A stretch of DNA of 64,000 nt from Candidatus Poribacteria bacterium (GCA_026710795.1 JAPOQK010000080.1:465-64464); one strand, 5' to 3'; shown: positions 15,082 to 47,356, numbered from the stretch's first letter. Program-made: numbers and translations. Notes: generated by a model not told the origin, from the letters alone.

Positions 15082-15819
15082 ATGAATGATACTTATGTAA
15101 TAATATCCGATGCCAACTTAGCCGCTGCCATACGAGAAGTACTCGGTTTGAGCTCAGGTGATACTATCCCGTTAAAAAGGTTAGAGGAATTAGAGAAACT
15201 ACATGCTGATGAAAAAGGTATAAAAGACTTAACAGGATTAGAGAATGCAACAGGATTAAAGGTATTAGAACTTCAAAAGAATCAAATTAGCGACATCACA
15301 CCTATTAGCGGATTGAAGCAACTGACTTATGTAGAGTTCTGGGATAATCAAATCACGGATATTTCACCGCTTGCAAAGTTAAAGCAAGTCACAAAATTGG
15401 GACTCGGTGACAATTGTATCAGTGACATCAAACCTCTTACGGAGTTAACCCAACTCACAGAATTGGGACTTTGGGATAATCAACTTAGCGACATTTCTCC
15501 ACTTACGAACTTGACACAGATACAGTTGTTAAACATCAGACGAAATCAACTTAGTGATATAAGTCCACTTGCCAACTTAAAACATATTACGCATTTATGG
15601 CTTAGTGGCAATCAAATTAAAGACATAAATACTATTGGTGGACTGACGCAGTTGACACATTTAGCATTGGATAAGAATCAAATCAACACCATTCAACCTA
15701 TAGTTAACCTAACGAGTTTAACGCATTTACGTATCAATGAGAATCCGATTCAGGACATTGAATCGCTTCCTAGACTGACAGATATAGAACTGGATATTCC
15801 AACTCTTGTTGACAATTAA
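15082..15819 (+). CDS. leucine-rich repeat (internalin-like 22-aa LRR) protein, single module
   Basis: Repeats of LxxLxxLxLxxNQIsDIsPL. N-cap AIREVLGLSSGDTIPLKRLEELEKL and C-cap NENPIQDIESL. Start moved to MNDTYV because the ORF-track start at 15049 lies inside the PSD1 terminator hairpin. Confidence 0.75.
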   Translation: MNDTYVIISDANLAAAIREVLGLSSGDTIPLKRLEELEKLHADEKGIKDLTGLENATGLKVLELQKNQISDITPISGLKQLTYVEFWDNQITDISPLAKLKQVTKLGLGDNCISDIKPLTELTQLTELGLWDNQLSDISPLTNLTQIQLLNIRRNQLSDISPLANLKHITHLWLSGNQIKDINTIGGLTQLTHLALDKNQINTIQPIVNLTSLTHLRINENPIQDIESLPRLTDIELDIPTLVDN

Positions 15820-15834
15820 ATTGAGGGCTACAAT

Positions 15835-18795
15835 ATGAAGTCTTTTTTCGTTATGGTTCTCATACTCATATCTTCCCTCACATTTGCATATAGCGATACT
15901 GTGGTAATTCCAGACGTGAACTTAGATGCTGCTGTGCGCGAAGCACTCAGTTTAGATCCAACTGATCCTATCCCACAAAATAAGTTGGAAGAATTGGAAA
16001 GTTTAGATGTCATAGAAAAAGGCATAAAAGACCTAACAGGTATAGAAAAAGCAACAGGATTAACGACATTAGAACTTAATGACAATCAAATTAGTGACAT
16101 CACACCCCTTACTAACTTAACTAAACTGACAGAACTATACCTTACAAATAATCAAATCAGTGACATCAAGGCATTGGCAAGCTTAACTGAACTCATAAAA
16201 TTATCAATCTCTGGCAACCAAATCAATGATATTACTCTGCTTGCTGGATTGTCAAAACTCACAGAATTATGGTGTAACAATAATCAAGTCAGTGATATAA
16301 AACCAATTGCTGGATTGACGCAACTGACGCAATTATATCTTTGGAATAATCCACTCAAGGACATTACGCCGCTGGAAAGAATGGAACAGTTAAGGGAGTT
16401 AAGTCTTGGGGGAAATCCGATCAACGACTTAACACTATTCTCAGGTATGACGGAATTGAGGAAGCTATGGCTTTGGGATAGTCAAATCAGTGATATCACC
16501 CCGCTTGCTGGATTGACAATGCTAACAGACTTATACCTCACGAAAAATCCTATCAATGACATCACCCCACTTGCTGGATTGACAAAACTGGAAAAGTTAT
16601 ACCTCATAGAAAATCAGATTAACGACATCACCTCGCTTGCTGGACTAACCAAACTTACAACATTATGGCTTGACGACAATCAAATCAGCGACATTACGCC
16701 ACTCGCGGGATTGACACAGCTGACAGACCTAACTCTCATGGATAATCAAGTTCGTGATATAACATCACTTTCTGGATTGGCGAAGTTGAAATGGTTACGT
16801 ATCTGGAACAATCAGATTAGTGACATCACACCACTTGCGAACTTGAAACAGTTGGCAACCTTATTGCTCTTAAATAATCAGATTTCTGACATTACGTCTC
16901 TTGCTGATCTAACACAATTAACGCATCTAAATCTTTCCGGAAATCAGATCCAAGACATCACACCACTGACGGGATTAACACAATTAACATATTTATCCCT
17001 CAGTAGAAATCAAATCAGCGACATCAAAACCCTATCAAGATTGGCACAGTTGACATCATTATCCCTTGACGATAATGGAATCAGTGACATAAAACCAATT
17101 GAAGGTTTAATAAAGATTCGTAGTTTATTGCTCAGCAGAAATAAAATTGACAACATCACGCCAATTGCTGGGTTGACGGAACTCACACAGTTATGGCTTT
17201 CAAACAATCAGATCAACGACATCAAATCGCTCTCAGAATTAACGAATTTGACAGAATTATTGATGTATGACAATCAAATCAAGGATATCAGTCCTGTTGA
17301 GAATCTGACAAGTTTAACGCTTTTAAAGGTCTATGGAAATCCAATTCAAAATATGGAATCACTTGTGAGGTTATTGAAACAAGTTCCAGATTTGAAATTG
17401 GATATCCAAGCACAGCTTCCAATAACGTCTATCCCCGATCCAACAATACCGGATGTTAATTTAGCCAACGCGGTGCGAGAGGAACTCGGTTTGAAACGTA
17501 GCGATACCATACCGTTGATGAATTTGACAGAATTAGAGGAGTTAAATGTCGGAGGAAAGAGTATAGAAGACTTAACAGGACTGGAAAAGGCGACAAAATT
17601 AAAGGTCTTGGTACTTGATCGTAATCAAATCAGTGATATTATGCCGCTCGCTAATCTGAAACAACTCACAGACTTAGATCTTAGTCGAAATCAGATCAAT
17701 GACATCACACCTCTTGCAGACTTGACCCAACTCACTGAGCTGAAGATTCAGAATAACCAAATCAGCGACTTAAAACCGCTTTCTAAATTAACACAAATTA
17801 CATTGTTACGTCTTAATGACAACAAAATCAAAAATGTCATGCCGCTCATACGAATGTCGAAGTTGACACATTTATATCTTACCAGAAATCAAATAAGCGA
17901 TATAACACTCCTCGGGGCATTAACACAGTTGGAAGAGTTAGCCATTGGTGGTAATCAGTTTCGTGACATCACGTTTCTTGCTGACTTGACTAACCTAAAG
18001 ATGTTATGGCTTTGGGGAAGTCAGATTCAGGACATCACACCACTCAAAAAACTAACCCAATTAACAGGCTTAAACCTTCATGACACACAAATTCGTGATA
18101 TCACAGTCCTTGGTGGAATGACAAAATTGACATGGCTCCGAATTCATAAAAATGCAATCAACGATATTACGCCTCTCGCGAACTTAACACAACTAACAGG
18201 AATACTGCTTCAGGAAAATCAAATCACGAACCTTACACCTCTCGCTGGGTTGAAAAAATTGGATAGTTTGAGTCTCCAAAAAAACCAAATTGATGATATC
18301 ACACCACTCAAAGATTTAACAAAGTTAAAAGAATTAAATCTGGGTGGAAACAAAATTACCGACATCACACCTATCCAAAATTTACGAAGTTTGACATCAT
18401 TTTGGGTATGGGATAATCAAATTACCGACATAACACCATTAACTGAGTTGACACAAATGGAGAAGTTGTGGCTTTGGGGAAATCAAATCAGCGATCTCAC
18501 ACCGATAACTAATTTCACAGAATTGGAAGAGTTAAGCCTTGGAGTTAACAAAATCAGTGATCTCACTCCCATAGTAGGAGCAACAAAGTTAGAACTATTG
18601 GATATAGACAGAAACCAAATCACTGACATCAGCCTCCTTGTAAAGTTTCCAAATTTAAGGAGTCTAAATCTCAGGGGAAATCCAATTCAAGATATGGAGC
18701 CTCTTCAAATACTGTTGAAACAAAATGAGAATTTAAAAGTGGATGTACCGACATCAATTGAACTGAATATTCAGCCACCACCTGCAAATAAGTAA
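15835..18795 (+). CDS. large secreted LRR protein made of two internalin-like LRR modules
   Basis: 986 aa; signal peptide MKSFFVMVLILISSLTFA; about 40 22-aa LRRs. N-cap motif (IPDVNLxxAVREeLxL...IPxxxLxELEeL...KxIxDLTGxEKAT) occurs at residue ~20 and again at ~540; both modules end with GNPIQxME.L. Confidence 0.8.
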   Translation: MKSFFVMVLILISSLTFAYSDTVVIPDVNLDAAVREALSLDPTDPIPQNKLEELESLDVIEKGIKDLTGIEKATGLTTLELNDNQISDITPLTNLTKLTELYLTNNQISDIKALASLTELIKLSISGNQINDITLLAGLSKLTELWCNNNQVSDIKPIAGLTQLTQLYLWNNPLKDITPLERMEQLRELSLGGNPINDLTLFSGMTELRKLWLWDSQISDITPLAGLTMLTDLYLTKNPINDITPLAGLTKLEKLYLIENQINDITSLAGLTKLTTLWLDDNQISDITPLAGLTQLTDLTLMDNQVRDITSLSGLAKLKWLRIWNNQISDITPLANLKQLATLLLLNNQISDITSLADLTQLTHLNLSGNQIQDITPLTGLTQLTYLSLSRNQISDIKTLSRLAQLTSLSLDDNGISDIKPIEGLIKIRSLLLSRNKIDNITPIAGLTELTQLWLSNNQINDIKSLSELTNLTELLMYDNQIKDISPVENLTSLTLLKVYGNPIQNMESLVRLLKQVPDLKLDIQAQLPITSIPDPTIPDVNLANAVREELGLKRSDTIPLMNLTELEELNVGGKSIEDLTGLEKATKLKVLVLDRNQISDIMPLANLKQLTDLDLSRNQINDITPLADLTQLTELKIQNNQISDLKPLSKLTQITLLRLNDNKIKNVMPLIRMSKLTHLYLTRNQISDITLLGALTQLEELAIGGNQFRDITFLADLTNLKMLWLWGSQIQDITPLKKLTQLTGLNLHDTQIRDITVLGGMTKLTWLRIHKNAINDITPLANLTQLTGILLQENQITNLTPLAGLKKLDSLSLQKNQIDDITPLKDLTKLKELNLGGNKITDITPIQNLRSLTSFWVWDNQITDITPLTELTQMEKLWLWGNQISDLTPITNFTELEELSLGVNKISDLTPIVGATKLELLDIDRNQITDISLLVKFPNLRSLNLRGNPIQDMEPLQILLKQNENLKVDVPTSIELNIQPPPANK

Positions 18796-18846: not shown

Positions 18847-20325
18847 ATGGACCCAATTAAGGAATATTTGAAACTTGAAACCCGCCGCCAATTCTTCGGC
18901 AAATGTGCAACAGGACTCGGCGGTGCAGCCCTTGCCACATTGCTGCCGAATAGCATCGTAAACGCTCTTGAACAGCAGGCAGGAACGCGGGTTGGCGGAT
19001 TACCAGAACTGCCGCACTTTGCACCAAAAGCGAAACGCGCAATCTACCTATTTATGTCTGGTGCGCCTTCGCAAATGGACCTGTTTGACTACAAACCGAA
19101 GATGGGGGAATTCTTTGATAAAGACCTACCGGAAACAGTCCGGATGGGACAACGTCTTACTACAATGACCTCAGGACAAGCACGGTTCCCAATTGCACCG
19201 TCTATCTTTGAGTTCAAAAAACACGATAATGGAGGCGATGGTGCGTGGCTTAGCGAGTTGCTGCCTCATACAGCAACTATGGTTAAGGATATCGCTATCG
19301 TCAAATCAGTACATACCGATGCGATTAATCACGATCCAGCAATCACTTTCGTCTGTACCGGTGATGAGACTCCGGGTAAACCGAGTCTCGGTGCATGGCT
19401 TAGTTACGGTCTCGGTAGTGAAAACCAAAACCTTCCCGCTTTCATTGTGATGAACGCGACTTGGAGTGGTCCGAAGGGGGCACAGGCACTCTACAATCGT
19501 CTCTGGGGTTCTGGTTTCCTCCCATCTGAGCATCAAGGTGTGCTACTCCGCAGTCAAGGCGATCCTGTGCTGTTCCTCTCAAATCCGAAAGGTATGAATG
19601 AAAAAACACGCAAACGGATGCTTGATTCTTTAGTCAAACTCAACGAGGAAATATATGAGGAAGTCGGTGATCCTGAAACGCATGCGCGTATCACACAATA
19701 TGAGATGGCATTCCGTATGCAGACCTCTGTTCCTGAGCTCACGGATCTGAAACAGGAGACTGACAAAGTTAAGGAGATGTACGGTCCTGAGGTTGACACA
19801 CCCGGAACATTTGCTAATTGCTGCATCCTTGCTCGTAGGATGATGGAACGCGATGTCCGTCTCGTTCAAATCTTCCACCGCGGATGGGACCAGCACGGTG
19901 ATTTACCCAAGAACATCCGAAATCAGGCGCGCGACATTGACCAACCCGCAACCGCACTCGTTCAAGACCTGAAACAACGCGGAATGCTTGATGATACGCT
20001 CGTTGTGTGGGGTGGTGAATTCGGTCGAACTGTCTATTGCCAAGGGGCACTTAAGAAGGATAACTATGGACGAGATCATCATCCTAAGTGTTTCACGCTA
20101 TGGATGGCTGGTGGTGGTATCAAAGGTGGGGTCGTTTACGGCGAAACTGATGATTTCAGTTACAATATCGTCAAAGACCCTGTATCTGTTCGTGACCTAA
20201 ACGCAACAATCCTTAACCAACTCGGCATTGACCACGAACGCTTGACCTATAAGTTCCAAGGACTTGATCATCGGTTAACTGGCGTTGAAGAGAAAGCACG
20301 TGTTGTCAATGAGATATTGGCATAA
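18847..20325 (+). CDS. DUF1501 domain protein (sulfatase-like, Tat-secreted), copy 1
   Basis: 492 aa; Tat motif [19 protein letters not shown]. This family is the canonical genomic partner of PSCyt/DUF1549/DUF1553 proteins. Confidence 0.8.
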
Positions 20326-20339
20326 CAAAGGAGTTAACA

Positions 20340-21818
20340 ATGGACCCAATTAAGGAATATCTGCAACTTGAAACACGCCGTCAATTCTTCGGAAAATGTG
20401 CGATGGGTCTCGGAGGAGTAGCCCTCGCTTCATTGCTTCCGAATAGTATTGTAAATGCCCTTGAACAGCAAGCAGGTACACGGGTTGGCGGTTTGTCCGA
20501 ACTACCACACTTTGCACCAAAAGCGAAACGTGCTATTTACCTATTCATGTCCGGTGCGCCATCGCAAATGGACATGTATGATTATAAACCGAAAATGGGT
20601 GAATTCTTTGATAAAGATCTACCGGAAACAGTTCGGATGGGACAACGTCTTACCACCATGACCTCCGGACAGAAACGTTTCCCGATTGCACCATCTATAT
20701 TTGAGTTTAAGAAGCATGACAACGGTAGTGATGGTGCTTGGGTTAGCGAATTGCTCCCGCATACTGCTTCTATGGTAAAGGATATAGCAATCGTAAAATC
20801 GTTGCATACCGATGCGATTAACCACGACCCGGCTATTACCTTTGTCTGTACTGGCGATGAAACTCCCGGTAAACCGAGTCTCGGTGCGTGGCTTAGTTAC
20901 GGATTAGGCACAGACAACAAAAATCTTCCATCTTTTATTGTAATGAATGCCACGTGGACAGGTAGGAAGTCCGCACAAGCACTATATAACCGACTATGGG
21001 GTTCTGGTTTTCTCCCATCAGAACATCAAGGTGTCCTACTCCGAAGTCAAGGCGATCCGGTACTATTCCTCTCAAATCCGAAAGGCATGAGCGAAAAAGC
21101 ACGAAAACGGATGCTTGATTCTTTAGTCAAACTCAACGAGGAAATCTACGAAGAGGTAGGTGATCCTGAAACGCATGCACGTATTTCCCAATATGAGATG
21201 GCATTTCGTATGCAGTCCTCTGTCCCTGAACTCACTGACCTAAAACAGGAGTCAGATAAAGTCAAGGAAATGTATGGTCCAGAGGTAGACACCCCAGGCA
21301 CATTCGCGAATTGCTGTATTCTTGCGCGTCGGATGATGGAACGTGATGTTCGCCTCGTACAAATCTTCCATCGCGGATGGGATCAGCACGGAAACTTACC
21401 TAACGATATTCGAAACCAATGTCGTGACATTGACCAACCCGCAACGGCACTTGTCCAAGACTTGAAACAACGTGGTATGCTTGATGATACACTCGTTGTG
21501 TGGGGTGGTGAATTCGGACGGACTGTTTATTGCCAAGGGGCACTCAAGAAGGATAACTACGGGAGAGATCATCATCCGAAATGCTTTACGATGTGGATGG
21601 CAGGCGGCGGTGTCAAACCCGGAATCGTTCACGGTGAAACTGATGACTTCAGCTACAACGTCATCAAAGACCCCGTATCTGTCCGAGACCTTAACGCTAC
21701 GATACTTAACCAACTCGGTATTGACCACGAAAGGTTGACCTATAAGTTCCAAGGACTTGATCATCGGTTAACTGGGGTTGAGGAAAAAGCGCGGGTCGTT
21801 AACGAAATCTTGGCATAA
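20340..21818 (+). CDS. DUF1501 domain protein, copy 2 (tandem duplicate)
   Basis: 492 aa, about 90% aa and 87% nt identity to copy 1 over full length. Confidence 0.8.
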
Positions 21819-21929
21819 TCAAAACATACAGTAAGTGTGCCATCTTCAACAGTTGAACTGCTGCATATCTATCTCTGTCTACACGCAAAACTATCGCAAC
21901 TACAGTTTTTTAAGATGTATGGAGTTGAA

Positions 21930-23090
21930 ATGCAAGTTTACCATGGTACCGAACAGACACTTGATGCAAATACATTCCTCTCAATTCTGCAAGAAGATTA
22001 TGACAGCATATTTTTGACAAATTGCATAATTGAAGGTGTAATTGTCTTCTCATCTGAAACTGATGTAGAGATTGATGGACAATTGGTAGTTGATAAGGAA
22101 ATTGTTTGCGTTCGGTGCACGTTTAAAAACGTTTTCAAATTCGAAAATACCTTATTCAAAAAAGAAGTGTTTTTCGGTAATTCAGTGTTTCAAGATACTG
22201 TTAATTTCCGTAATAGTGTGTTCCAGAAAGCCTGTGACTTCGGGGAATCCACCTTTGAAGGTTCAGTCCTTTTCCGTGGTGCAGCCTTCAACGGAATGGC
22301 ACGCTTTTCCAAAACACGTTTTCAACAGGTTGCAGATTTTAACGATTCGCAATTCTCGGAAAACGCGGTTTTCAGAAATGCAATCTTCCAAGATGCTTCA
22401 CATTTCAACCGAGCGTTTTTCAGCAAGAAATTAGATTCCGTACAAGCACGATTCTCAGATACTGTTGTCTACAATGAGGCAACGTTTAGCGAAGAAACTG
22501 ATTTCACTGCTGCACGATTTGCCGTTTCCGCGTCCTATCAAAATGTGAGTTATATATCAGACACAATATGGCAGTGGATACGGAATAAGTTTTCTCATCA
22601 GTCAATACAACCTACAGAATTCTATTTAGATAGTGAAGACATTAATGGGGTTTTGAATCCATTTTTCAAACGTTACGTAGCGGATCAACAGTACGTTCGG
22701 GCATTCAAAGAAAAACACCCATTTTGGGCATTGGTCTGGAGATGGAGTTCAGATTATGGTCGCAGTTTAGCACTTTGGGCACTCTGGTCATTGCTGATTG
22801 CTCTTTCGTTCTCATTTGTTTATATGAAAGCACCGATGTGGTTTCCAGGATGGCTTCAAAAAACAATGCCTAAGTTCCACCAAGTAACAGTCACCGAAGC
22901 AAACGGAGACCTGACATTTTGGAAATCCTTTTACTTTAGTATTGTCACCTTTACGACATTAGGATTCGGGGATGTGGTTGCAGCCAATACATCCGCTCGC
23001 ATTCTCGTCACCCTTGAAGTCATTTTCGGATATATTATGCTCGGAGGATTAATCAGTATTTTTGCCAATAAACTTGCCAGTAGAAGTTAA
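21930..23090 (+). CDS. pentapeptide-repeat protein fused to a 2-TM K+-channel-like pore domain, paralog 1
   Basis: N-terminal tandem A(D/N)FxxxxF pentapeptide repeats (NSVFQDTVNFRNSVFQKACDFGESTFEG...). C-terminal TM1 LALWALWSLLIALSFSFVY, pore helix plus filter FYFSIVTFTTLGFGDV, TM2 ARILVTLEVIFGYIMLGGLISIFA. Start chosen at MQVYHG (GGAG RBS); the track start at 21837 is probably too far upstream. Confidence 0.7.
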   Translation: MQVYHGTEQTLDANTFLSILQEDYDSIFLTNCIIEGVIVFSSETDVEIDGQLVVDKEIVCVRCTFKNVFKFENTLFKKEVFFGNSVFQDTVNFRNSVFQKACDFGESTFEGSVLFRGAAFNGMARFSKTRFQQVADFNDSQFSENAVFRNAIFQDASHFNRAFFSKKLDSVQARFSDTVVYNEATFSEETDFTAARFAVSASYQNVSYISDTIWQWIRNKFSHQSIQPTEFYLDSEDINGVLNPFFKRYVADQQYVRAFKEKHPFWALVWRWSSDYGRSLALWALWSLLIALSFSFVYMKAPMWFPGWLQKTMPKFHQVTVTEANGDLTFWKSFYFSIVTFTTLGFGDVVAANTSARILVTLEVIFGYIMLGGLISIFANKLASRS

Positions 23091-23180
23091 TATCACATCT
23101 CCGATTCGCGTTACCGCTACTCCATGATTAACAACATTTGGTAGTACCTGAACTATAGTAGGGAGAGAAAATCAAGGATT

Positions 23181-24332
23181 ATGAAAAAATTAAATGCAGC
23201 TATTGTCGGAGCAGGATGGTCAGCAGAAGGACACACAAAAGCATTCCAACATTACGGTGTAGAAGTGATCGTTATCTGTGCGCGCAAACCTGAAATCGTT
23301 GGGAGAGTCGCCACCGAATTAGGTATTCCAAATGCCTCAATTGACTGGCGAAAAAGTTTGTTGGAACATAAACCTGATATTGTTGCGGTTACAACACCTG
23401 CTATTTTACGCACAGAAGTCATTGAAGTAGCAGTTGAACTCGGATGTCATGTCATCTGTGAAAAACCGCTTGCTCTTACCGCTGAAGAAGCAGGTCATAT
23501 CTATAACCTCATCAAAGATACGGAATTGAAACACGCTTTCGCCGCAACACATTTATACGACCCGAGCGTGGCTTATGTACGTGAACTGCTGACACAGCAG
23601 AAAATCATCGGTGATATAACCGCAGTTGATGTCGGATATACCCGAAGAATACCAGGTCCTCCTTCAGATAAAATTAAGCCTTGGAATTGGATGAGTTCTC
23701 TTGCACACGGTGGTGGTGCTTTAAACAATGGACTCACACACCGACTCGGTATGCTTGAGCGGATGACCGGCATGAAAGTATCAGCAGCAGTCGGTGAGGC
23801 AAAAATCCATCCAAGGAAAGCACCGGTAGTTCCGGAAATACGCGATTGGCGTGTGTGGCGAAGCACTATGATTACTCAAGAGGAAGCATCAAAACTTGAG
23901 TGGCGTGAGTGTGATGCGGAATGGGATTATTCCGCGTTTTTCAAGTTGGGACATCCAAATCCAGATTCCAGCAATGCTATTCTTGCGACAATGCGCACAA
24001 ATCCGGGAGTGCCATCAAATAAACCCCATGGTGGCTGGTTTTTCTACGGAACACAAGGCACACTCGTCGGGAGAGGTGGACATATTCTATATCAAATTAC
24101 AAAACATGTTGGTGAGGAAACTGAAGAACTGTCAGTACCACAGGAGTTTCAAGACGACCTGCCTCAAATCGGAGATGAAATCCAAAATAAGTGGACTGCT
24201 CTCGTTCGTGATTTTCTCGCAGATATTCAAGATCGTCCACACGAACCATATTTGACTTTCCATGATGGATGGCGTTACCAAATTGCTATTGATGCTATTC
24301 GGGGAAGCGAAGGATGGGCTGCGATGCTTTAA
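23181..24332 (+). CDS. Gfo/Idh/MocA family oxidoreductase
   Basis: 383 aa; AIVGAGWSAEGH Rossmann motif and EKPLALTAEEA, typical of this family. Confidence 0.75.
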   Translation: MKKLNAAIVGAGWSAEGHTKAFQHYGVEVIVICARKPEIVGRVATELGIPNASIDWRKSLLEHKPDIVAVTTPAILRTEVIEVAVELGCHVICEKPLALTAEEAGHIYNLIKDTELKHAFAATHLYDPSVAYVRELLTQQKIIGDITAVDVGYTRRIPGPPSDKIKPWNWMSSLAHGGGALNNGLTHRLGMLERMTGMKVSAAVGEAKIHPRKAPVVPEIRDWRVWRSTMITQEEASKLEWRECDAEWDYSAFFKLGHPNPDSSNAILATMRTNPGVPSNKPHGGWFFYGTQGTLVGRGGHILYQITKHVGEETEELSVPQEFQDDLPQIGDEIQNKWTALVRDFLADIQDRPHEPYLTFHDGWRYQIAIDAIRGSEGWAAML

Positions 24333-24377
24333 TGGAGCAAGCGGTATATGCGTTTCAAATCGTAAGGAAAAATATAA

Positions 24378-25562
24378 ATGTATGAAAAGCATGATGAGAC
24401 GATTGAAGCGCGGGAACTGCTTGAGGCATTGGAAAGCGATACCTCACACATCTCACTGAATAATTGCACGATTGAAGGCGTTATTGACCTACATGCAACA
24501 GAACTTGAACGCGATGCAAATGACCGAATCTGTATTGATAAAACCCTATCCTGTATCGGGTGTACTTTCAATAACATTGTTAATTTCCGAACAGCAGTTT
24601 TCCAACAAGAAGTCTCCTTCCGCCGTTCCGTTTTTGAGGCAGATGCCGATTTTGATGAAGCCACTTTCCAACATCAAAGCGGGAATCGTGAAACGATGCT
24701 TCACAGCGGTTTTCGTGAAACAACCTTTGCGGGTCGTGCTAACTTCCATAGTGTTGTTTTCCACAGAAGCGTAAGTTTTTGGCGTGCAAAATTCCACAAC
24801 GTCGCAGACTTCCACCAAGCACAATTTCATAATAACGCTGTTTTCCATGAAGCACAATTCCAAAAGGAAGTGAACTTTAGACGTGTGCTTTTCCAACAGA
24901 CACTTGATTGTACCGGTACAAACTTCGCACAAGTCGTTGAATTTAATCGGGCAACATTTATCGGTACCACCCTTTTTACTGCAGCAAAGTTTGCATCTGT
25001 CGCCTCCTTTCGTGATGTTCAGTATATCCCAAATACAATCCGTCAATCGATTGTAAATAGGTTCACCAAAAATCGCAAAAAACCTACAGAATTCTATTTG
25101 GACAGTCAACATGTGGACGAAGTTGCTAACCCATTTTTCAAACGTTATGTAGCGGATCAGCAGTTCATTCGTGCATTCAGTAAAGCGAATCCGATGTTAG
25201 CGCGTCTATGGAGATGGAGTTCTGATTATGGACGAAATCTGGGTTTATGGGCTTTTTGGTCACTGTTTTTTGCATTTCTGTTTGCTATAACATACATGCC
25301 GTTTCCATCGTGGACACCCGAATGGATGCAAACCTTATCCCCCCAATTTCATCAAGCGACTGGTCAGTATAGTGGTGAGCAGTTAACGTTTTGGAATTCC
25401 TTCTATTTCAGCGTTGTCACATTTACTACACTCGGTTTCGGTGATGTTGTAGCAGACAACGCCACCGCACGTCTACTTGTGACGTTGGAAGTCATTTTTG
25501 GCTATCTGATGTTAGGTGGGTTGATCAGTATCTTCGCAAATAAACTTGCAAGTCGTAGTTAA
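24378..25562 (+). CDS. pentapeptide-repeat protein fused to a 2-TM K+-channel-like pore domain, paralog 2
   Basis: 394 aa; same architecture and the same FSVVTFTTLGFGDVVADN filter; C-terminal 18 aa nearly identical to paralog 1 (FANKLASRS). Confidence 0.7.
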   Translation: MYEKHDETIEARELLEALESDTSHISLNNCTIEGVIDLHATELERDANDRICIDKTLSCIGCTFNNIVNFRTAVFQQEVSFRRSVFEADADFDEATFQHQSGNRETMLHSGFRETTFAGRANFHSVVFHRSVSFWRAKFHNVADFHQAQFHNNAVFHEAQFQKEVNFRRVLFQQTLDCTGTNFAQVVEFNRATFIGTTLFTAAKFASVASFRDVQYIPNTIRQSIVNRFTKNRKKPTEFYLDSQHVDEVANPFFKRYVADQQFIRAFSKANPMLARLWRWSSDYGRNLGLWAFWSLFFAFLFAITYMPFPSWTPEWMQTLSPQFHQATGQYSGEQLTFWNSFYFSVVTFTTLGFGDVVADNATARLLVTLEVIFGYLMLGGLISIFANKLASRS

Positions 25563-25636: not shown

Positions 25637-26005
25637 CTACTAATACCATTTCTAATAAATAAAGTGCCATTTGCTGAGGACTACTTGTAGGAGCGACCTC
25701 CTGGTCGCGACCGGGAGGTCGCTCCTACAGAAGAAAGATTTCCAATCAATAACAATGGTTGAATCCAGTAATGGGACAATAAATATTAGAATTGGTATAA
25801 CTAAAGTGTCGTCAATTGGCTTTACCTGAATAAGTCTATTTTCGTGTTTATCCACCCAAATTATTATACAGACTCACAACTAATACCATTTCCAACATAT
25901 AATGTCCCTTTTTGTAGCACAAACTGTTAGTTTGTGTCCTACAGCATTACTATACTAATAACCGAAAATGAGACAATTATTAATAGAAATGGTATAAGTA
26001 TTGCG
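25637..26005. repeat. two tandem MITE-like units, each bounded by ~35-bp terminal inverted repeats (TAATACCATTTCTAATA...AAGTG core)
   Basis: Four copies in alternating orientation: 25639-25672(+), 25770-25810(-), 25877-25910(+), 25965-26005(-). The core ACTAATACCATTTC(T/C)AATA recurs as its reverse complement TATTAGAAATGGTATAAG. Confidence 0.6.
25687..25728. repeat. 42-bp near-perfect palindrome GTAGGAGCGACCTCCTGGTCGCGACCGGGAGGTCGCTCCTAC
   Basis: The two 21-nt arms are reverse complements with one G.T mismatch. It lies inside the first MITE-like unit and shares the GAGCGACCTCC core with the dispersed REP-like element. Confidence 0.7.
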
Positions 26006-26130
26006 AAGTATTGAGAATTCGCTGTCTATAGTTTTTCATCTAATTATTCTCTCAGTGATTGTTCATTTTTGGAAGGAAAGAAGAAGAGAAATAAAAACTG
26101 AATCAATATTGATACGGAGGTCCTTAAAAA

Positions 26131-26795
26131 TGGCTAGAAAAATTTTTGTGTCCTATAAACACTCTGATGATAGTGTTGAACCCATTAAGGACGAAACAAC
26201 AGCACGTGCTTATGTTGATGAGTTAATTGAAATCTTTGAAGATGATGAAATCTATAAAGGTGAAGGCGATGAAGATTTGAGTGAATTCAAAGATGAAACG
26301 ATTGAAACTCACCTGAAAGATAAGATATACGACAGTAGCGTAACACTTGTTCTAATTTCACCAAATATGAAGGAATTGTTGAAAAATGAATCTGACCAAT
26401 GGATTCCTTGGGAAATATCATATTCTCTAAAAGAAATAACACGAAATGAGCGTACAAGCCAAACAAATGGCATGCTTGCAATTGTTTTGCCAGATTCAAA
26501 TTCATCATATAGTTATTATCTTGAAGAAAATACATGCACTGCTTGCAATTGCCGCACCCTACATACTAATACACTGTTTCAGATACTACGAGATAATATG
26601 TTCAATGTTATGGAACCAACATTTAGTAATTGTCCAGAACATCCTCCTGAAACTGTATATAAAGGTCATTCTTCCTATATTTATTCGGTTAAATGGAGTG
26701 ATTTTATAGGTGATACAGACAAATATCTTGACATAGTGGAAGAAATAAGGGAAAATATAAATGATTACGACATTACAAAAACAGTGAAAGATTAA
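26131..26795 (+). CDS. TIR-like domain protein (DUF1863 / ThsB-like) with C-terminal Cys/His-rich extension
   Basis: Start at MARKIFVSYKHSDD (GGAGG RBS 9 nt upstream); K/R-IFxSYxHxD is the typical ThsB/DUF1863 opening. SSVTLVLISPN....WIPWEISYSL resembles, from memory, the DUF1863 core (vtiVLiG....W.yEI). C-terminal CTACNC....CPEH could bind metal. Local GC about 33-35%. The ORF-track 5' extension (TTG at 26001) overlaps an inverted repeat and is less likely. Confidence 0.5.
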
Positions 26796-26905
26796 ATTGT
26801 GGATAAGTTTACTCTCAAATTGATATTGACAAGATCACCTATTATTTTCCACAGTATAATAAACTGTATATTAATTTGTAACACATGGCTAAGGAGGACA
26901 AAGTC

Positions 26906-27313
26906 ATGAACGGTACAGAAAAAGTCGTAAAACATTTGGAGATGATACAAGCTGTAATTAACCGTTTGGGACGAAACAGTTTTCTCTTAAAAAGCTGGAG
27001 TATGACAATTCTCGTTGCAGCCATGGTCTTAATCGCAAAGGAAGATCTACAAAATCCATATACTGTTTTAGTTCTTTTTCTTCCAATTTTTGGATTTTGG
27101 ATTTTGGATGGTTACTTTCTCCAGCAAGAACGACTGTTCCGAAAAGTCTATGACGAGGTCAGAGGACAAACTGATACCGAATTCGAAATGAATCTTGGCA
27201 AGCACAAAGACAAACCAAAGTGTAGTCGATTGTCTGCTACTTTTTCCCAAACACTCGTTATATTCTACTTGATAGAAATCCTTTTCGTAATTGCAGTAGC
27301 TTATTTCTTTTAG
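26906..27313 (+). CDS. small 3-TM membrane protein (possible SLATT-like effector partner of the TIR gene)
   Basis: Perfect AAGGAGGA RBS 8 nt before ATG 26906. Predicted N-terminal amphipathic helix, TM1 WSMTILVAAMVLIA, TM2 VLVLFLPIFGFWILDGYFL, a ~55-aa loop, TM3 TLVIFYLIEILFVIAVAYFF. Same strand and 110 bp after the TIR-like gene. Confidence 0.45.
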   Translation: MNGTEKVVKHLEMIQAVINRLGRNSFLLKSWSMTILVAAMVLIAKEDLQNPYTVLVLFLPIFGFWILDGYFLQQERLFRKVYDEVRGQTDTEFEMNLGKHKDKPKCSRLSATFSQTLVIFYLIEILFVIAVAYFF

Positions 27314-27653
27314 TTAATAATGCGTACTATGAGACACGTACTTCAGTGTTGAACAGGATGATGTTTGGGTGTTAATTAGGTCCGCAATAGTTGGTTAATA
27401 AGGAAATTACCACTCTGCTGGCTCATAGATAGTACAGTTCGTTGTTTTCATTCCGTCTACATCCTCACATTCCGCATCATCCCAAATTCACCCAAAAAAT
27501 CAAAAAAACACCCACTCAATCTTATACATCCATAAAACATATTGGATATATATTGTTCCAAAATCCACAACCCCTTCCAATCCTCAACAACACGTGCTAT
27601 AATACTATTACTATGAAAAACACAACCACATACAAATCCAACATAACCGCATT

Positions 27654-27689
27654 CGTAGGTCGGATCGAGCAAAGCGACCTCCGACAAAT
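27654..27689. repeat. REP-like imperfect palindrome CGTAGGTCGGAKCGAGCRAAGCGACCTCCGAC (copy 1)
   Basis: Further copies at 27861-27895, 47186-47217, 47325-47356 (inverted) and a degenerate one at 62027-62065. All are intergenic. Confidence 0.6.
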
Positions 27690-27860
27690 AGCCAAAAACA
27701 AAAGATACAGTTTTTCAAGTTTTTTTTACACAGTAAACCGGTGAAAACAACCTATAAACCCAGTCTGGTACAACAACGAGACAACAACACAGTAAAGATA
27801 CAGTTATGTAAAAAAAGGCATAAAACTGTATCTTTTTAAAACGGAGGAAAACAACACGAT

Positions 27861-27895
27861 TCGTAGGTCGGAGCGAGCGAAGCGACCTCCGACAG
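27861..27895. repeat. REP-like palindromic element copy 2
   Basis: cgtaggtcggagcgagcgaagcgacctccgac. Confidence 0.6.
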
Positions 27896-28309
27896 GGTAT
27901 TAAACAATACAAAAACAGCAAAAAATCAAAGAATAATAAGTAATTCAAAGGTTACGGTTTTTCTTTTTTTTTACATTCAAAAAAACCGATGAAAACAACC
28001 CATAAACCCAGACAGGAACTAAAACCAGTGAAAAATACCAAAAGTTACCGTTATGTAGAAATTAGACATAAAACCGTAACCTTTTTATACGGAAAAAAAC
28101 CCAATGAAAATGCAAGACAAACAATTCACAGTCAAATATAATGTCCGAAGTCTTGTGCATGGTGTTCCATTCGTTTCTTTATGCAAAAAACTTTACACAC
28201 CAAAAATCAACCATTGACAGAATATGGAAATAGAAATATAATTAAATAGGAAATGCCATACCTAAGCATTACTCAACCACATTTCACTGTTCGTTTAAGG
28301 AATCTCTTT

Positions 28310-30646
28310 ATGTCATTCAGGATCTTATCTAAACTTGTTGTTATCCTCATACTATGCATCTCCATAACACATGTAACAGCGCAAGAGTCTCCTAACACCG
28401 ATTACTTCGACCACATCACCCTATTCTCAGACGGCAGAATCACACGATTCGCACAGATGCCGATTCGCGTGTTCATTTCATCTGTCATAAAAGAGAGTCC
28501 ATACCTACCAGAACTTCGCTACGCAATGCGTGAATGGGAGACTGCAACCGAACAACTGATCCAATTTCAGGAAATCGATACACCAGATAAAGCAGATATC
28601 AAAGTTAGTTGGGGATATAGTAGTCTGATGGATATACATGATACCCGTCTCGGAAGTGCACAGTTAAGACGGATACCTAACAGACAGGCAACAGATAAGG
28701 ATAACGAAGTAATAATCGAAGTAGAAATAATACTCATGCTGGAAGGCGATGATACCGTCACAGAACTATCCGAACTGGAAATGCGTACAGTCTGCCTACA
28801 CGAGTTCGGACATGCAATTGGATTATGGGGACACAGTCCACACCCAGGCGATATATGCTATCCTACTGCCACAGCACAGCATCCGTCTCTGCGAGATATA
28901 AACACCTTACGTAAACTCTATAATACACCGATTGGCACTCCTCAACACGACGAGGCAATCAAAGCATTAAAAACGGAGATTTTACAAGAACCCAGGGAAC
29001 ATTACCATCACTTTCTACTCGGTAATGTCCATTTTGACAAAGGTGATATGGAATCCGCCATTGATAGTTATCAAGATTGTATCCATATAAATGAACACTT
29101 CCAACCTGCCATTGAAAAACTATTGATGGCTTATGAAGCAATAGGGCAGTTATCTACGGCGATCAATCTGCTTGAACAAAGGATAAAAACCAAACCGAGA
29201 TCTGCCGATTACAACACACTCGGAATTCACTACTACAATAAAGGTGAAGTTGATATGGCGATAGATTCCTTTAAAAGTGCTGTTGCTCTCAACCCTTACC
29301 ACAAAGCATCAAAACATAACTTACACCAACTCTTCAGAGAAAAGGCACTCCGCTCGCTAAAAGCCGAGGACTTTGAAACAGCAACGAAGATGTTTGAGAA
29401 GATTATCCAACTCAACCCGATGGATTCAACGACATATATGTTGATGGGTGAGGGTTATGCTCGGGCTGGACATTACAAGAATGCCATTGATTACTATCAA
29501 AAAGCACTTAAGATAAATCCTGTTAGTAGAATAACCAAACGAGGACTCGCGCAATCATATAACAACTACGGAGTCACGCTCAGAAATAGTAAGAAATGGG
29601 ATGATGCTATCGCCGCTTACCATAAGGCATTGGAAATACATCCCGCTTTCCATATTGCCCGATCAAACTTGAGTGATGCTTTTTGGCAGAAAGCAAACAC
29701 CTTACGCAATAACGGACAAGTTGATGAAGCCATCAACGCTTATTTGGAATTGCAGAAACTTCAACCAAAGGACACACAAATCTCCAGTTTACTTGGTGAG
29801 TTGTATCTCAAAAAACGGAATTATGCCGCTGCTGTCACTGAATTTCATAAAGTCTATTTGTCAAAACCTGATGATCCTCAAGCACGCCATAACCTGATTG
29901 CAGCATATCATCAATCAGCACAACATCTGATTGATCGGAAAGATTTCGGTTCCGCTATTGAACTCCTTCAGAAAGCAGTGATCATTGCCCCTACCGAAAC
30001 CAATATTCGTTTGAGTTTAGCACATGCATATCAAAGCATTGGTGAATATGAAAGTGCCCAAACAGAACTTAATCATGTCATTAAAAGCGATCCACACAAC
30101 CAGCAAGCAAATACCGAGCAAATAAACCTCTATATTCGTCTTGGAAATGCGTTTGTGCAGCAGAAGAATTATCCTGCCGCACTTGCACAGTTCCAAGCAA
30201 TCCCTGAAACTGAAAGAGATGTCGTCATAAACAATATAATAGGTTACCTCTATCTCGTTCAAGGGAGATATACTGAGGCATTGACTGCCTTTGATAAGGT
30301 AATTTCCCAAGATCCATACAATAGACCAACCTATCAAAATCTCATTTCGCTTGAAGCTCAAGTGGCAAACCGAATCTTTGGACGCAATAAAACTGATATA
30401 CTCATACGGACGCGATGCATACTCGCTATCTGCTTGTTAAACCAGAACAAATTTGACGCTGCACTTACAAAATACCAACAAGCAAAAGATAGCAAATCAG
30501 AAAAACATCAAGAACTTTTATATAATACTGGAACAAAATTACTGAGTAGATTTGAAGCACAGAAGGATTTGGAGAAAAGTGCTACGATACGTCAATGGAT
30601 TGGAGAACTAAACTACAACCCCAACAAGGTACTTGATGACCGTTAG
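28310..30646 (+). CDS. secreted zincin (matrixin-like HExxHxxGxxH) metalloprotease domain fused to ~500 aa of TPR repeats
   Basis: Start at MSFRIL with signal peptide (ORF-track start 28253). VCLHEFGHAIGLWGHSPH zinc motif; many TPR units (AIDSYQDCIHINEHF..., AIDYYQKALKINP..., AIAAYHKALEIHP...). Confidence 0.75.
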   Translation: MSFRILSKLVVILILCISITHVTAQESPNTDYFDHITLFSDGRITRFAQMPIRVFISSVIKESPYLPELRYAMREWETATEQLIQFQEIDTPDKADIKVSWGYSSLMDIHDTRLGSAQLRRIPNRQATDKDNEVIIEVEIILMLEGDDTVTELSELEMRTVCLHEFGHAIGLWGHSPHPGDICYPTATAQHPSLRDINTLRKLYNTPIGTPQHDEAIKALKTEILQEPREHYHHFLLGNVHFDKGDMESAIDSYQDCIHINEHFQPAIEKLLMAYEAIGQLSTAINLLEQRIKTKPRSADYNTLGIHYYNKGEVDMAIDSFKSAVALNPYHKASKHNLHQLFREKALRSLKAEDFETATKMFEKIIQLNPMDSTTYMLMGEGYARAGHYKNAIDYYQKALKINPVSRITKRGLAQSYNNYGVTLRNSKKWDDAIAAYHKALEIHPAFHIARSNLSDAFWQKANTLRNNGQVDEAINAYLELQKLQPKDTQISSLLGELYLKKRNYAAAVTEFHKVYLSKPDDPQARHNLIAAYHQSAQHLIDRKDFGSAIELLQKAVIIAPTETNIRLSLAHAYQSIGEYESAQTELNHVIKSDPHNQQANTEQINLYIRLGNAFVQQKNYPAALAQFQAIPETERDVVINNIIGYLYLVQGRYTEALTAFDKVISQDPYNRPTYQNLISLEAQVANRIFGRNKTDILIRTRCILAICLLNQNKFDAALTKYQQAKDSKSEKHQELLYNTGTKLLSRFEAQKDLEKSATIRQWIGELNYNPNKVLDDR

Positions 30647-47034: not shown

Positions 47035-47036
47035 AA

Positions 47037-47122
47037 TGCCGGAAGAGGGACTCGAACCCTCACGCGCGATTTGCACACTAGAACCTGAATCTAGCCTGTC
47101 TACCAAATTCCAGCATCCCGGC
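47037..47122 (-). tRNA. tRNA-Leu (anticodon CAG), CCA not encoded
   Basis: Minus-strand read GCCGGGAUG-CUGGAAUUUGGUAGACAG-GCUAGAUUCAGGUUCUAGUG-(long variable arm UGCAAAUCGCGCGUGA)-GGGUUCGAGUCCCUC-UUCCGGCA. Anticodon arm GCUAGAUUCAGGUUCUAGUG closely matches, from memory, the E. coli Leu(CAG) tRNA anticodon arm; the long variable arm is typical of Leu. Confidence 0.8.
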
Positions 47123-47185
47123 ATTGCAATGATATAGTATATACGGATTCCAATCAAATGTCAAATTATAGTGAATTGTAGTATC

Positions 47186-47356
47186 GTAGGTCGGAGCGAG
47201 CAAAGTGACCTACGACATATTTGAGTAGATATTTGTTTATTGTGAGGTGCCATGTTGGTCTTTGACAGTGATTGTATTGCAGAAAAAACCCTTCTGTGAT
47301 TTCTGTGATTCTGACAACAAACATGTCGGAGGTCGCTACACTCGTTCCGACCTACG
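47186..47356. repeat. inverted pair of REP-like elements enclosing ~108 bp, between tRNA-Leu and mnmE
   Basis: 47186-47217 cgtaggtcggagcgagcaaagtgacctacgac; 47325-47356 gtcggaggtcgctacactcgttccgacctacg, the reverse-complement orientation. Confidence 0.55.

Follow-up and report, generated by a model that had tools for sequence, protein, structure and literature searches.

The stretch analysed here is a window of 64,000 nt from a Candidatus Poribacteria genome (GCA_026710795.1, JAPOQK010000080.1:465-64464), which has a GC content of 41.7% and codes for many eukaryote-like repeat proteins. Between the stop codon of the second gene of a TIR/TM pair, which codes for a small membrane protein (TM), and an open reading frame (ORF) for a zincin-TPR protein lies a region (27314-28252) in which a sequence-only reading of the window had noticed an 800-bp CA-rich, G-depleted block with two tandem hairpin units. 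As we report here, this block is very probably one copy of a dispersed mobile repeat, and its two units may act as transcription terminators. The block had been called non-coding, which holds, since 27314-28252 is intergenic. The zincin-TPR ORF as listed begins at 28253, but its real start most likely is the ATG at 28310 because of a signal-peptide-like N-terminus at this position and a perfect promoter upstream of it (Table 1). With 12.8% G against 20.7% in the whole window, 27440-28250 is the lowest-G stretch of 811 nt in the window; however, the plus strand is nearly free of G only between 27440 and 27650 (5.2%) and not over ~800 bp, and 27651-27900 shows a normal value of 20%.

Each of the two units contains a 5' arm (A), a CA-rich box, a direct copy of the 5' arm (A') and an inverted arm (a) that is complementary to A and A'. 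An exact scan of reference genome contigs with a 20-nt box sequence yielded only three chance matches in unrelated taxa, and blastn searches against plasmid and phage collections gave no match. Scanning metagenome contigs with the box pattern resulted in 48 loci, about 35 of which are true copies with the A/box/A'/a layout. They are located on large contigs from a few sponge metagenome samples and on MKWU01000053, which belongs to an Illumina assembly of the Aplysina aerophoba sponge microbiome (PMC5649159), often with several copies per contig. Among the bins of that study, one of Poribacteria with 40.3% GC is in keeping with the GC content of the window and with its eukaryote-like repeat proteins. 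The 16 matches in viral contigs, all in one unrelated phage coding sequence, and five metagenome matches to the same gene are not copies: in these loci (L025, L030, L035, L051, L053, L055-L070) a 19-nt box pattern occurs by chance identity in a conserved phage coding sequence, and the flanks are unrelated. A covariance model built from 28 units detected 58 units of ~140 nt in a total of 37 related loci from sponge metagenomes; in the window, it recovered the two known units and no others. Further copies of the unit, which had been proposed as something to look for, are therefore present in number.

Comparing the window with the metagenome loci by BLAST showed that the whole stretch of ~27518-28201 recurs as a block. 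In about 25 loci, the homology starts on the left at ~27486-27531 and stops on the right at 28201, and column conservation drops from ~0.9 to 0.49 beyond 28203. Every copy has a right end of ...AAACTTTACACACC followed by unique sequence, the flanks diverging past ...CTTTACACACC, and in several loci the left end is GGGTGTGTAAATATTTTTGCAT, the inverted complement of the right end. Complete copies are thus bounded by terminal inverted repeats (GGGTGTGTAAA...TTTACACACCC); the motif GGGTGTGTAAA(T/G)nTTTTTGCAT is found inverted at both ends in L016, L026, L041, L042, L049 and L052, and only at the right end (28181-28201) in the window copy. Five complete copies of 880-951 bp each lie within 8-9 bp target-site duplications of unrelated sequence (TTGTTTGAT, GCATTTCAT, TCCTGGTC, GTGAAAATG and AGGTGTTC, the fifth also given as A/TAGGTGTTC), and a sixth copy (L016) is located at a contig end. 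The distinct insertions are represented by 16 right flanks and 18 promoter variants. No ORF of more than 109 amino acids is present within a complete copy, and the small ORFs of the window copy show no significant Pfam match. Because of its inverted-repeat ends, the target duplications and the absence of a transposase-sized ORF, we assign the element to the non-autonomous transposable elements. No parent insertion sequence or autonomous partner was found among the terminal-repeat matches in the window and the collected loci, and a search for empty sites or other contexts via the flanking proteins only led to short-read contigs that all end inside the repeats.

Based on this comparison, we are confident that the block is a copy of a dispersed mobile repeat. 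The copy has been rearranged or has lost its 5' part, and the repeat is a composite transposable element of ~0.9 kb that is gene-less and lineage-specific and by all appearances has spread to many intergenic sites in the genome of the sponge symbiont. The block does separate the TIR/TM pair from the zincin-TPR gene, as had been stated, but it is not a feature of this single locus, because it sits beside unrelated genes in at least 15 other loci without TIR/TM genes. The left half of the element consists of the left terminal repeat, a CA-rich leader, a promoter, a box-like sequence and a repetitive extragenic palindrome (REP) of the GTAG type, often followed by 30-nt tandem repeats. The right half contains unit 1, a second REP, a spacer that usually carries a nested MITE (miniature inverted-repeat transposable element) of ~120 bp, unit 2, and a tail with the terminal repeat of the right side. 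Neither the left terminal repeat nor the nested MITE is present in the window copy, the parts of which are listed in Table 1.

Table 1. Features of the intergenic region and its borders (positions in the window)
Feature	Position	Strand	Remarks
TM gene, 142-aa membrane protein	26885-27313	+	directly upstream of the intergenic region
Sequence from TM stop codon to repeat	27314-27517	+	no homology to other copies; includes the most G-poor stretch (27440-27517)
Window copy of the putative composite non-autonomous element	27518-28201 (~685 bp)	+	right boundary exact; left terminal repeat and ~130 nt missing or replaced
Predicted internal promoter P_int	27575-27603	+	TTCCAA (27575-27580), 17-nt spacer, TG (27595-27596), TATAAT (27598-27603)
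Box0, ATGAAAAACACAACCACATACAAATCCAAC	27613-27642	+	CA-rich, just past P_int; conserved among copies; resembles the unit box ATGAAAACAACCCATAAACCC
REP palindrome 1, GTAG-tagged (tTCGTAGGTCGG...CGACCTCCGACA)	27652-27686	+	core conservation 1.0 among element copies
Unit 1 arm A, AAAAGATACAGTTTT	27700-27714	+	pairs with 27822-27836; interrupted complementarity extends to 27730 and 27807
Unit 1 conserved box, AAACCGGTGAAAACAACCTATAAACCCAG	27735-27763	+	CA-rich, 29 nt
Unit 1 terminator-like hairpin	27794-27837	+	A' 27794-27805, loop, a 27822-27836, T-run 27833-27837
REP palindrome 2	27860-27894	+	35 nt; 208 nt from REP 1
Variable spacer	27895-27945	+	differs strongly between strains; without nested MITE in the window copy
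Unit 2 arm A, AAAGGTTACGGTTTT	27947-27961	+	15 nt, 100% complementary to 28070-28084
Unit 2 conserved box, AAACCGATGAAAACAACCCATAAACCCAG	27983-28011	+	CA-rich, 29 nt
Unit 2 hairpin	28041-28086	+	A' 28041-28052, loop, a 28070-28084, T-run 28082-28086; imperfect local stem
Tail with right terminal inverted repeat	28087-28201	+	terminal repeat ATGCAAAAAACTTTACACACC at 28181-28201
Promoter of the zincin-TPR gene, TTGACA-17-TATAAT	28214-28242	+	12/12 consensus positions; outside the element, 12 nt past its right end

Both REP-like palindromes expected at 27654 and 27861 were recovered. They fit the published definition of GTAG-type REPs (PMC3733652), i.e. imperfect palindromes of 20-40 nt with GTAG at one end (cGTAGGTCGG...CCTCCGAC) and many copies, as they occur at 27652, 27860, 47183 and 47324 (minus strand) of the window and in nearly all copies of the element. 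Behind the first REP, other copies contain one to three tandem 30-nt repeats (ATCTTACATTCTGTAGAAGCGACCTCCGAC; e.g. L016, L028, L038 and L045), whose number differs among loci and is zero in the window copy. Among 18 distinct copies, P_int contains TTCCAA in 16, the TG in all 18 and TATAAT in 16, its spacer sequence takes several forms, and its -10 and start region are conserved to 0.98-0.99. A functional extended -10 promoter should be conserved in this manner, and the predicted promoter points toward the units. The nested MITE found in most other copies, a module that matches 25883-25998 of the window, carries a -10 of the type TGnTATAAA. A third, outward-facing promoter in the tail (AAGACA-17-TATAAT, 28114-28142) was rejected because only its -10 is conserved.

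The copies show a constant orientation toward neighbouring genes. The first long ORF beyond the right end is encoded on the strand of the element in all of the 15 distinct loci that could be scored, with its start 26-347 nt away, and a recognisable -35/-10 pair is often present 12-23 nt past the right terminal repeat. The left neighbour is divergent in ~10 loci and co-directional in ~6, and no copy was found between convergent genes. Because random orientation in intergenic DNA would make about half of the copies face a gene start, the 15/15 corresponds to p ~3e-5. Either targeting or selection may cause this bias to the 5' ends of genes.

The genes upstream of the block in the window form a candidate two-gene defence system (26001-27313). 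The TIR protein is ThsB-like (PADLOC PDLC00428, E = 6e-84), with its true start probably near 26130, and the second gene matches the small membrane protein PDC-M50A. Upstream of the TIR gene, AATGGTATAAGT (~25988-25998, at the end of a small element at 25879-25999) resembles a TGn-extended -10 and may drive the TIR/TM operon. The pair does not accompany the block elsewhere: no matches to 26000-27480 were found in at least 15 loci, and L046 contains the block without the defence genes. The association of the block with defence genes is therefore incidental. Folding revealed no terminator-like structure between the TM stop codon and unit 1, and none in 27305-27450 (z = +0.79), so transcripts of the TIR/TM operon probably end at the hairpins of the element.

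The two tandem units were confirmed, but with a period of 247-248 nt instead of ~200 bp. The 29-nt box is conserved in both, at a quality not matched by any of 100 shuffles of the window. Both units also contain the direct repeat of the 5' arm that had been placed ~90 nt upstream of the stem, A' beginning 94-95 nt downstream of A. Arms A and a form a perfect pairing of 15 bp in both units. Local pairing of A' with a is perfect over 12 bp in unit 1 (27794-27805 with 27824-27835) and followed by T5, with -15.6 kcal/mol and z = -6.35. A 12-bp stem with a T-run was thus correctly assigned to unit 1, but the local stem of unit 2 contains a C-C mismatch and a bulge and reaches only -6.4 kcal/mol (z = -1.6). 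Similarly, the stem GATACAG/CTGTATC given for unit 1 is correct, whereas GTTACGG of the stem GTTACGG/CCGTAAC given for unit 2 belongs to the upstream arm A, the local arm being GTTACCG. When folded as a whole, the units adopt a panhandle in which A pairs with a over a long range and a large open loop holds the CA-rich box; the energies are -33.2 and -27.4 kcal/mol, and none of 200 shuffles folded as well. The 3' part folded alone yields the local hairpin with its T-run. An Rfam 15 scan of the window block resulted in best E values of 4.5-9.7, far under the gathering scores, and a scan of one complete copy of the element gave no match. At the start of the G-poor stretch and outside the shared repeat, 11 nt (GTTGTTTTCAT, 27441-27451) are perfectly complementary to the first nucleotides of the box in both units (ATGAAAACAAC).

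The changes that distinguish the stems of the two units had been taken for compensatory, which was confirmed by comparing them and also by a co-variation test on the homologous loci. Among 28 distinct units, whose score was tested by shuffling and by sliding the partners, the A:a helix (15 pairs) is paired in 98.3% of the cells, against 33-61% with slid partners, and contains three covarying pairs (A-U/G-C; A-U/U-A; C-G/A-U/G-C); the score was reached in 0 of 500 shuffles. The A':a helix (12 pairs) is paired in 92.9% of the cells (29-55% when slid), with two to three covarying pairs and again 0 of 500 shuffles. The pairing proposed for a two-arm stem is therefore real, but it is conserved in a three-way manner, with A, A' and a all co-varying. 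In 49 distinct model-aligned sequences, 8 of the 15 A:a pairs are changed on both sides, a count that leans toward structure because this alignment was fitted to the covariance model. Three stem types occur (GATACAG/CTGTATC, GGTTACCG/CGGTAACC and GATACCG/CGGTATC), and the box is invariant across them while the stems and the loop after the box vary. A G:C pair is flipped to C:G between the window and the strain variant L004, a diverged copy (L011:2149-2299) has wholly different yet complementary arms (TGTACCAATT/AATTGGTACA), and half-converted single copies are seen in unit 2 of the window, L026 and L038b. Because the copies are related, these counts refer to sequences, not events, and we estimate the independent double changes at ~4-9. 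Judged from the aligned copies, the hairpin is clearly being maintained, and the conclusion that the co-variation reflects its maintenance became much stronger with 28-49 distinct copies. However, the finding of a dispersed mobile repeat changes the meaning of the co-variation: among interspersed palindromic repeats, it is common for sub-families to have alternative complementary stems (Di Nocera 2013, PMC3733652), and hairpin-templated DNA repair could give the same pattern with no function of an RNA.

Of the roles offered at the outset, namely a riboregulator, tandem terminators or DNA hairpins, we prefer the tandem terminators, whereas a riboregulator specific for this locus does not agree with a dispersed repeat. 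With moderate confidence, we read the units as intrinsic (Rho-independent) terminator modules for the promoter or promoters of the element and for read-through from upstream. All of the 30 distinct units show the hairpin with its T-run (U4-7 in the transcript) on the strand of the predicted promoter, which is located upstream of them. The local hairpin has -11 to -15 kcal/mol in 26 units and -4.7 to -6.6 in four mismatched ones. A precedent for such a role is the terminator-like interspersed repeat SPRITE (PMC3049150). On transcription, arm a would pair with the adjacent A' to form an AT-rich hairpin of 9-12 bp followed by U4-7, and the transcript would end there; A':a should form first and halt the RNA polymerase because its two arms adjoin. 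Unit 1 would thereby cap a CA-rich RNA of ~230-290 nt begun at P_int and, in the window, also stop read-through from the TIR/TM operon, which appears to lack a terminator. Unit 2 would act as an additional stop or, in copies with the nested MITE, close a second transcript that begins at the promoter of this MITE, and both units would insulate the promoter of the downstream gene. The released RNA could then refold into the more stable A:a panhandle with the box in its loop, which is the predicted minimum-energy fold in all 30 units (-18 to -33 kcal/mol). The stems would co-vary because the hairpin must be kept, either via selection on the RNA or via hairpin-templated DNA repair.

Several observations weigh against this assignment. 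A generic scan for consensus terminators found none, because the stems have only three G-C pairs and long loops of 8-13 nt; lacking the canonical G+C-rich stem and short loop, the units would be weak and atypical terminators, and the local hairpin of unit 2 in the window is poor. The upstream arm A is needless for a pure terminator, yet A:a is the better-conserved helix, and the 29-nt box as the most invariant part of the unit and the constant facing of a gene start by the right end are left unexplained. Moreover, the co-variation could stem from quasi-palindrome correction at the DNA level instead of selection. Because arm A, the invariant box and the insertion bias are not accounted for, the main alternative, though rather improbable, is a family of small RNAs (sRNAs) carried by the element, in which the panhandle would make the RNA stable and expose the box (AAACCGRUGAAAACAACCCAUAAACCCAG) for use as a seed or as a binding site for a protein; the terminator would then be the 3' end of the sRNA, so that the two assignments overlap, but the RNA itself would have a function. 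The constancy of the box across the stem types fits this proposal, as do the conserved promoter with a box-like sequence right after it, the panhandle as the minimum-energy fold with 98% pairing, the depletion of G, which keeps the loop unstructured, and the precedent of MITE-derived sRNAs in Coxiella (PMC10969869). On the other hand, there is no Rfam match, and the copies must be recent, being ~90% identical, so that their young age alone may account for the invariant box. A potential target, a 14-nt perfect complement to the box (TCTGGGTTTATGGG, 25238-25251) within the neighbouring pentapeptide/ion-channel gene, is the single match from an open-ended search with a chance expectation of ~1% (~0.01 per window), and the paralogue at 21837-23090 does not contain it. 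We regard it as unlikely that the structure matters at the DNA level only, as selfish palindromic arms kept by hairpins or cruciforms of single-stranded DNA during replication or transposition, or by template-switch repair of quasi-palindromes. The genome does contain several palindromic MITE and REP families (the elements at 25638-25803 and 25879-25999 as well as the REPs), and it is well known that sub-families of REPs can carry alternative complementary stems (PMC3733652). Transversions distinguish the bases at several of the co-varying positions, and the half-converted states mentioned above also speak for this reading. However, the units were never seen outside the composite element or with target duplications of their own, the constant T-run after arm a on the promoter strand would be unexplained, and arms that lie 110 nt apart are poor substrates for template switching.

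A coding function seems very unlikely, even though the box starts ORFs of the type MKTT(H/Y)KP... that run through A' and a and might represent small basic peptides or the leader peptide of an attenuator, whose translation modulates termination. All 28 units have ATG or GTG as start codon, the promoter-proximal Box0 starts a similar ORF (MKN(K/T)TTYKP...), an N-terminus of MK..TT.KP is common to all three ORFs, indels between the units and in Box0 variants keep the frame, and synonymous and non-synonymous changes were counted by hand at ~1:1. Nevertheless, these ORFs have neither a Shine-Dalgarno sequence nor a Pfam match, their ends are not conserved (the stops differ in L004, L011 and L038a), the two unit types use different reading frames for the segment that lies between the indels, and third codon positions do not hold a surplus of the variation that follows the box. 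Since sequence low in G and T holds few stop codons, open frames are expected by chance. We give next to no credit to a function as non-coding partner of the TIR/TM (PDC-M50) pair, e.g. as a retron-like msr/msd with a1/a2 repeats or a ToxI-like antitoxin repeat: its position directly downstream of the two defence genes and a panhandle with flanking inverted repeats would suit such a role, but the block occurs in at least 15 loci without these genes, L046 among them, and its neighbours in the window are the ThsB-like TIR and PDC-M50A genes only, with no adjoining reverse transcriptase. The retron was rejected for these reasons, and a false lead is removed in that the block is neither a dedicated riboregulator nor an RNA partner of the defence pair. 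Equally far-fetched appears a substrate of site-specific recombination, either an integron attC site or an inverton with a promoter segment bounded by A and a. Inverted repeats of 15-30 bp around a segment of 110 bp in an element upstream of genes recall such systems, but the arms (GATACAG/CTGTATC or GGTTACCG/CGGTAACC) are unlike attC cores (RYYYAAC...GTTRRRY), being in the wrong order and variable between copies, the box is never inverted relative to the tail among the 58 copies, and no cassette ORF lies between the units; both versions were rejected on these grounds. Finally, on a somewhat speculative, and on balance unlikely, reading, the element would be a transposable gene for a non-coding RNA. 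Each insertion would then bring one promoter-to-terminator cassette or two, in a fixed orientation, to a site directly upstream of a promoter of the host, and the panhandle RNAs would present the invariant CA-rich box and, as a multi-copy family, act in trans. They would serve as seed or sponge for a host or transposase factor, or control the mobility of the element itself, with A/A'/a switching between a fold to terminate and a fold to mature.

The element belongs to a general kind that is already known, i.e. mosaics similar to MITEs or bacterial interspersed mosaic elements (BIMEs) with promoters and terminator-like hairpins (PMC3733652, PMC3049150, PMC10969869). The pneumococcal SPRITE, a terminator-like interspersed repeat, shares with the units an AT-rich sequence of ~150 nt with a long stem and then a U-rich tract in the transcript, modular repeats that insert into one another, and a function inferred from anatomy only. 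Unlike SPRITE, the units are internal modules of a 0.9-kb element bounded by terminal inverted repeats and target-site duplications and equipped with its own promoter, and they have three-part arms and an invariant box. Moreover, the pneumococcal repeats BOX, RUP and SPRITE are biased to convergent genes (PMC3049150), whereas the element described here was never found there and always faces a gene start. MITEs can carry promoters or sRNAs (PMC3049150, PMC10969869), and MITEs including the Correia elements (PMC10969869) resemble the element in their terminal inverted repeats, target duplications, many copies and lack of a transposase, in carrying sigma-70-type promoters, and in being located often directly upstream of genes; in its bias to gene starts, the element is closer to the Correia elements. 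They differ in size, which is usually less than ~300-600 bp compared to the 880-951 bp of complete copies, and the element combines REPs, nested MITEs and tandem hairpin units in a mosaic for which no matching autonomous element was found in the window and the collected loci. The 35-nt palindromes starting with GTAG in the window and in every copy, mixed with other motifs, correspond to GTAG REPs, BIMEs and REPINs (PMC3733652), but the co-varying arms A and a contain no GTAG and lie 110 nt apart. Tandem paralogous sRNA genes and the QMITE sRNAs of Coxiella (PMC10969869) likewise combine a promoter and a conserved, unstructured segment with a terminator hairpin, the stem of which can co-vary freely; in contrast to them, the copies described here are not confined to one locus but are spread by transposition.

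The family itself, its composite build of 0.9 kb, the triple-arm units and the bias to gene starts appear undescribed in the literature searched, which also contained no paper linking Poribacteria to such elements. An uncultured sponge symbiont thus apparently harbours an undescribed family of large, gene-less composite transposable repeats. For work on bacterial repeats, it is of interest that a conserved promoter is followed by two terminator-like modules with three co-varying segments instead of two, and that one and the same end points toward a gene's 5' end in all of the 15 loci scored, which is opposite to the bias to convergent genes that typical parasitic repeats show.

These repeats also have a practical consequence, because they interrupt short-read assemblies, in which the contigs of several samples all break off at 25667-25808 and 27919-27948, and can give rise to joins that are chimeric or recombinant. 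Locus L004 does not differ from the window as far as ~27878 and, from the equivalent of 27672 onward, shows 99.7% identity to L046, with the join falling in ~200 nt that are identical in L004, the window and L046. It may represent either a real repeat-mediated recombination, by which the TIR/TM pair moved beside an SBP_bac_5 gene, or a chimera of the k=141 assembly, and we did not rely on it as proof of a TIR/TM cassette in a different genomic context.

Some further repeats and genes of the window were recorded. The elements at 25638-25803 and 25879-25999 are two small MITE-like members of one family, with terminal inverted repeats of ~34 nt (TACTAATACCATTTC...) around a GTAG-tagged palindrome. 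The palindrome of the former (25686-25729) has 44 nt and is 95% self-complementary, that of the latter is a different, co-varying one, and copies of the 25879-25999 type are nested inside most copies of the large element. At 47036-47356, a REPIN-like doublet of REPs in opposite orientations (47183-47217, plus strand, and 47324-47356, minus strand) comes after a minus-strand gene for tRNA-Leu(CAG); TTCTGTGATTCTGACAA sits between these two REPs, and the same motif precedes many copies of the element. A long array of 66-nt (22-aa) repeats at 15100-18500 probably codes for a protein with leucine-rich repeats, one of the eukaryote-like proteins that sponge symbionts commonly have. It is followed by two tandem paralogues of 492 aa with DUF1501 domains (18847-21818), which share ~86% DNA identity over 300 nt, and by two pentapeptide-repeat/ion-channel fusion genes with an oxidoreductase gene between them (21837-25562).

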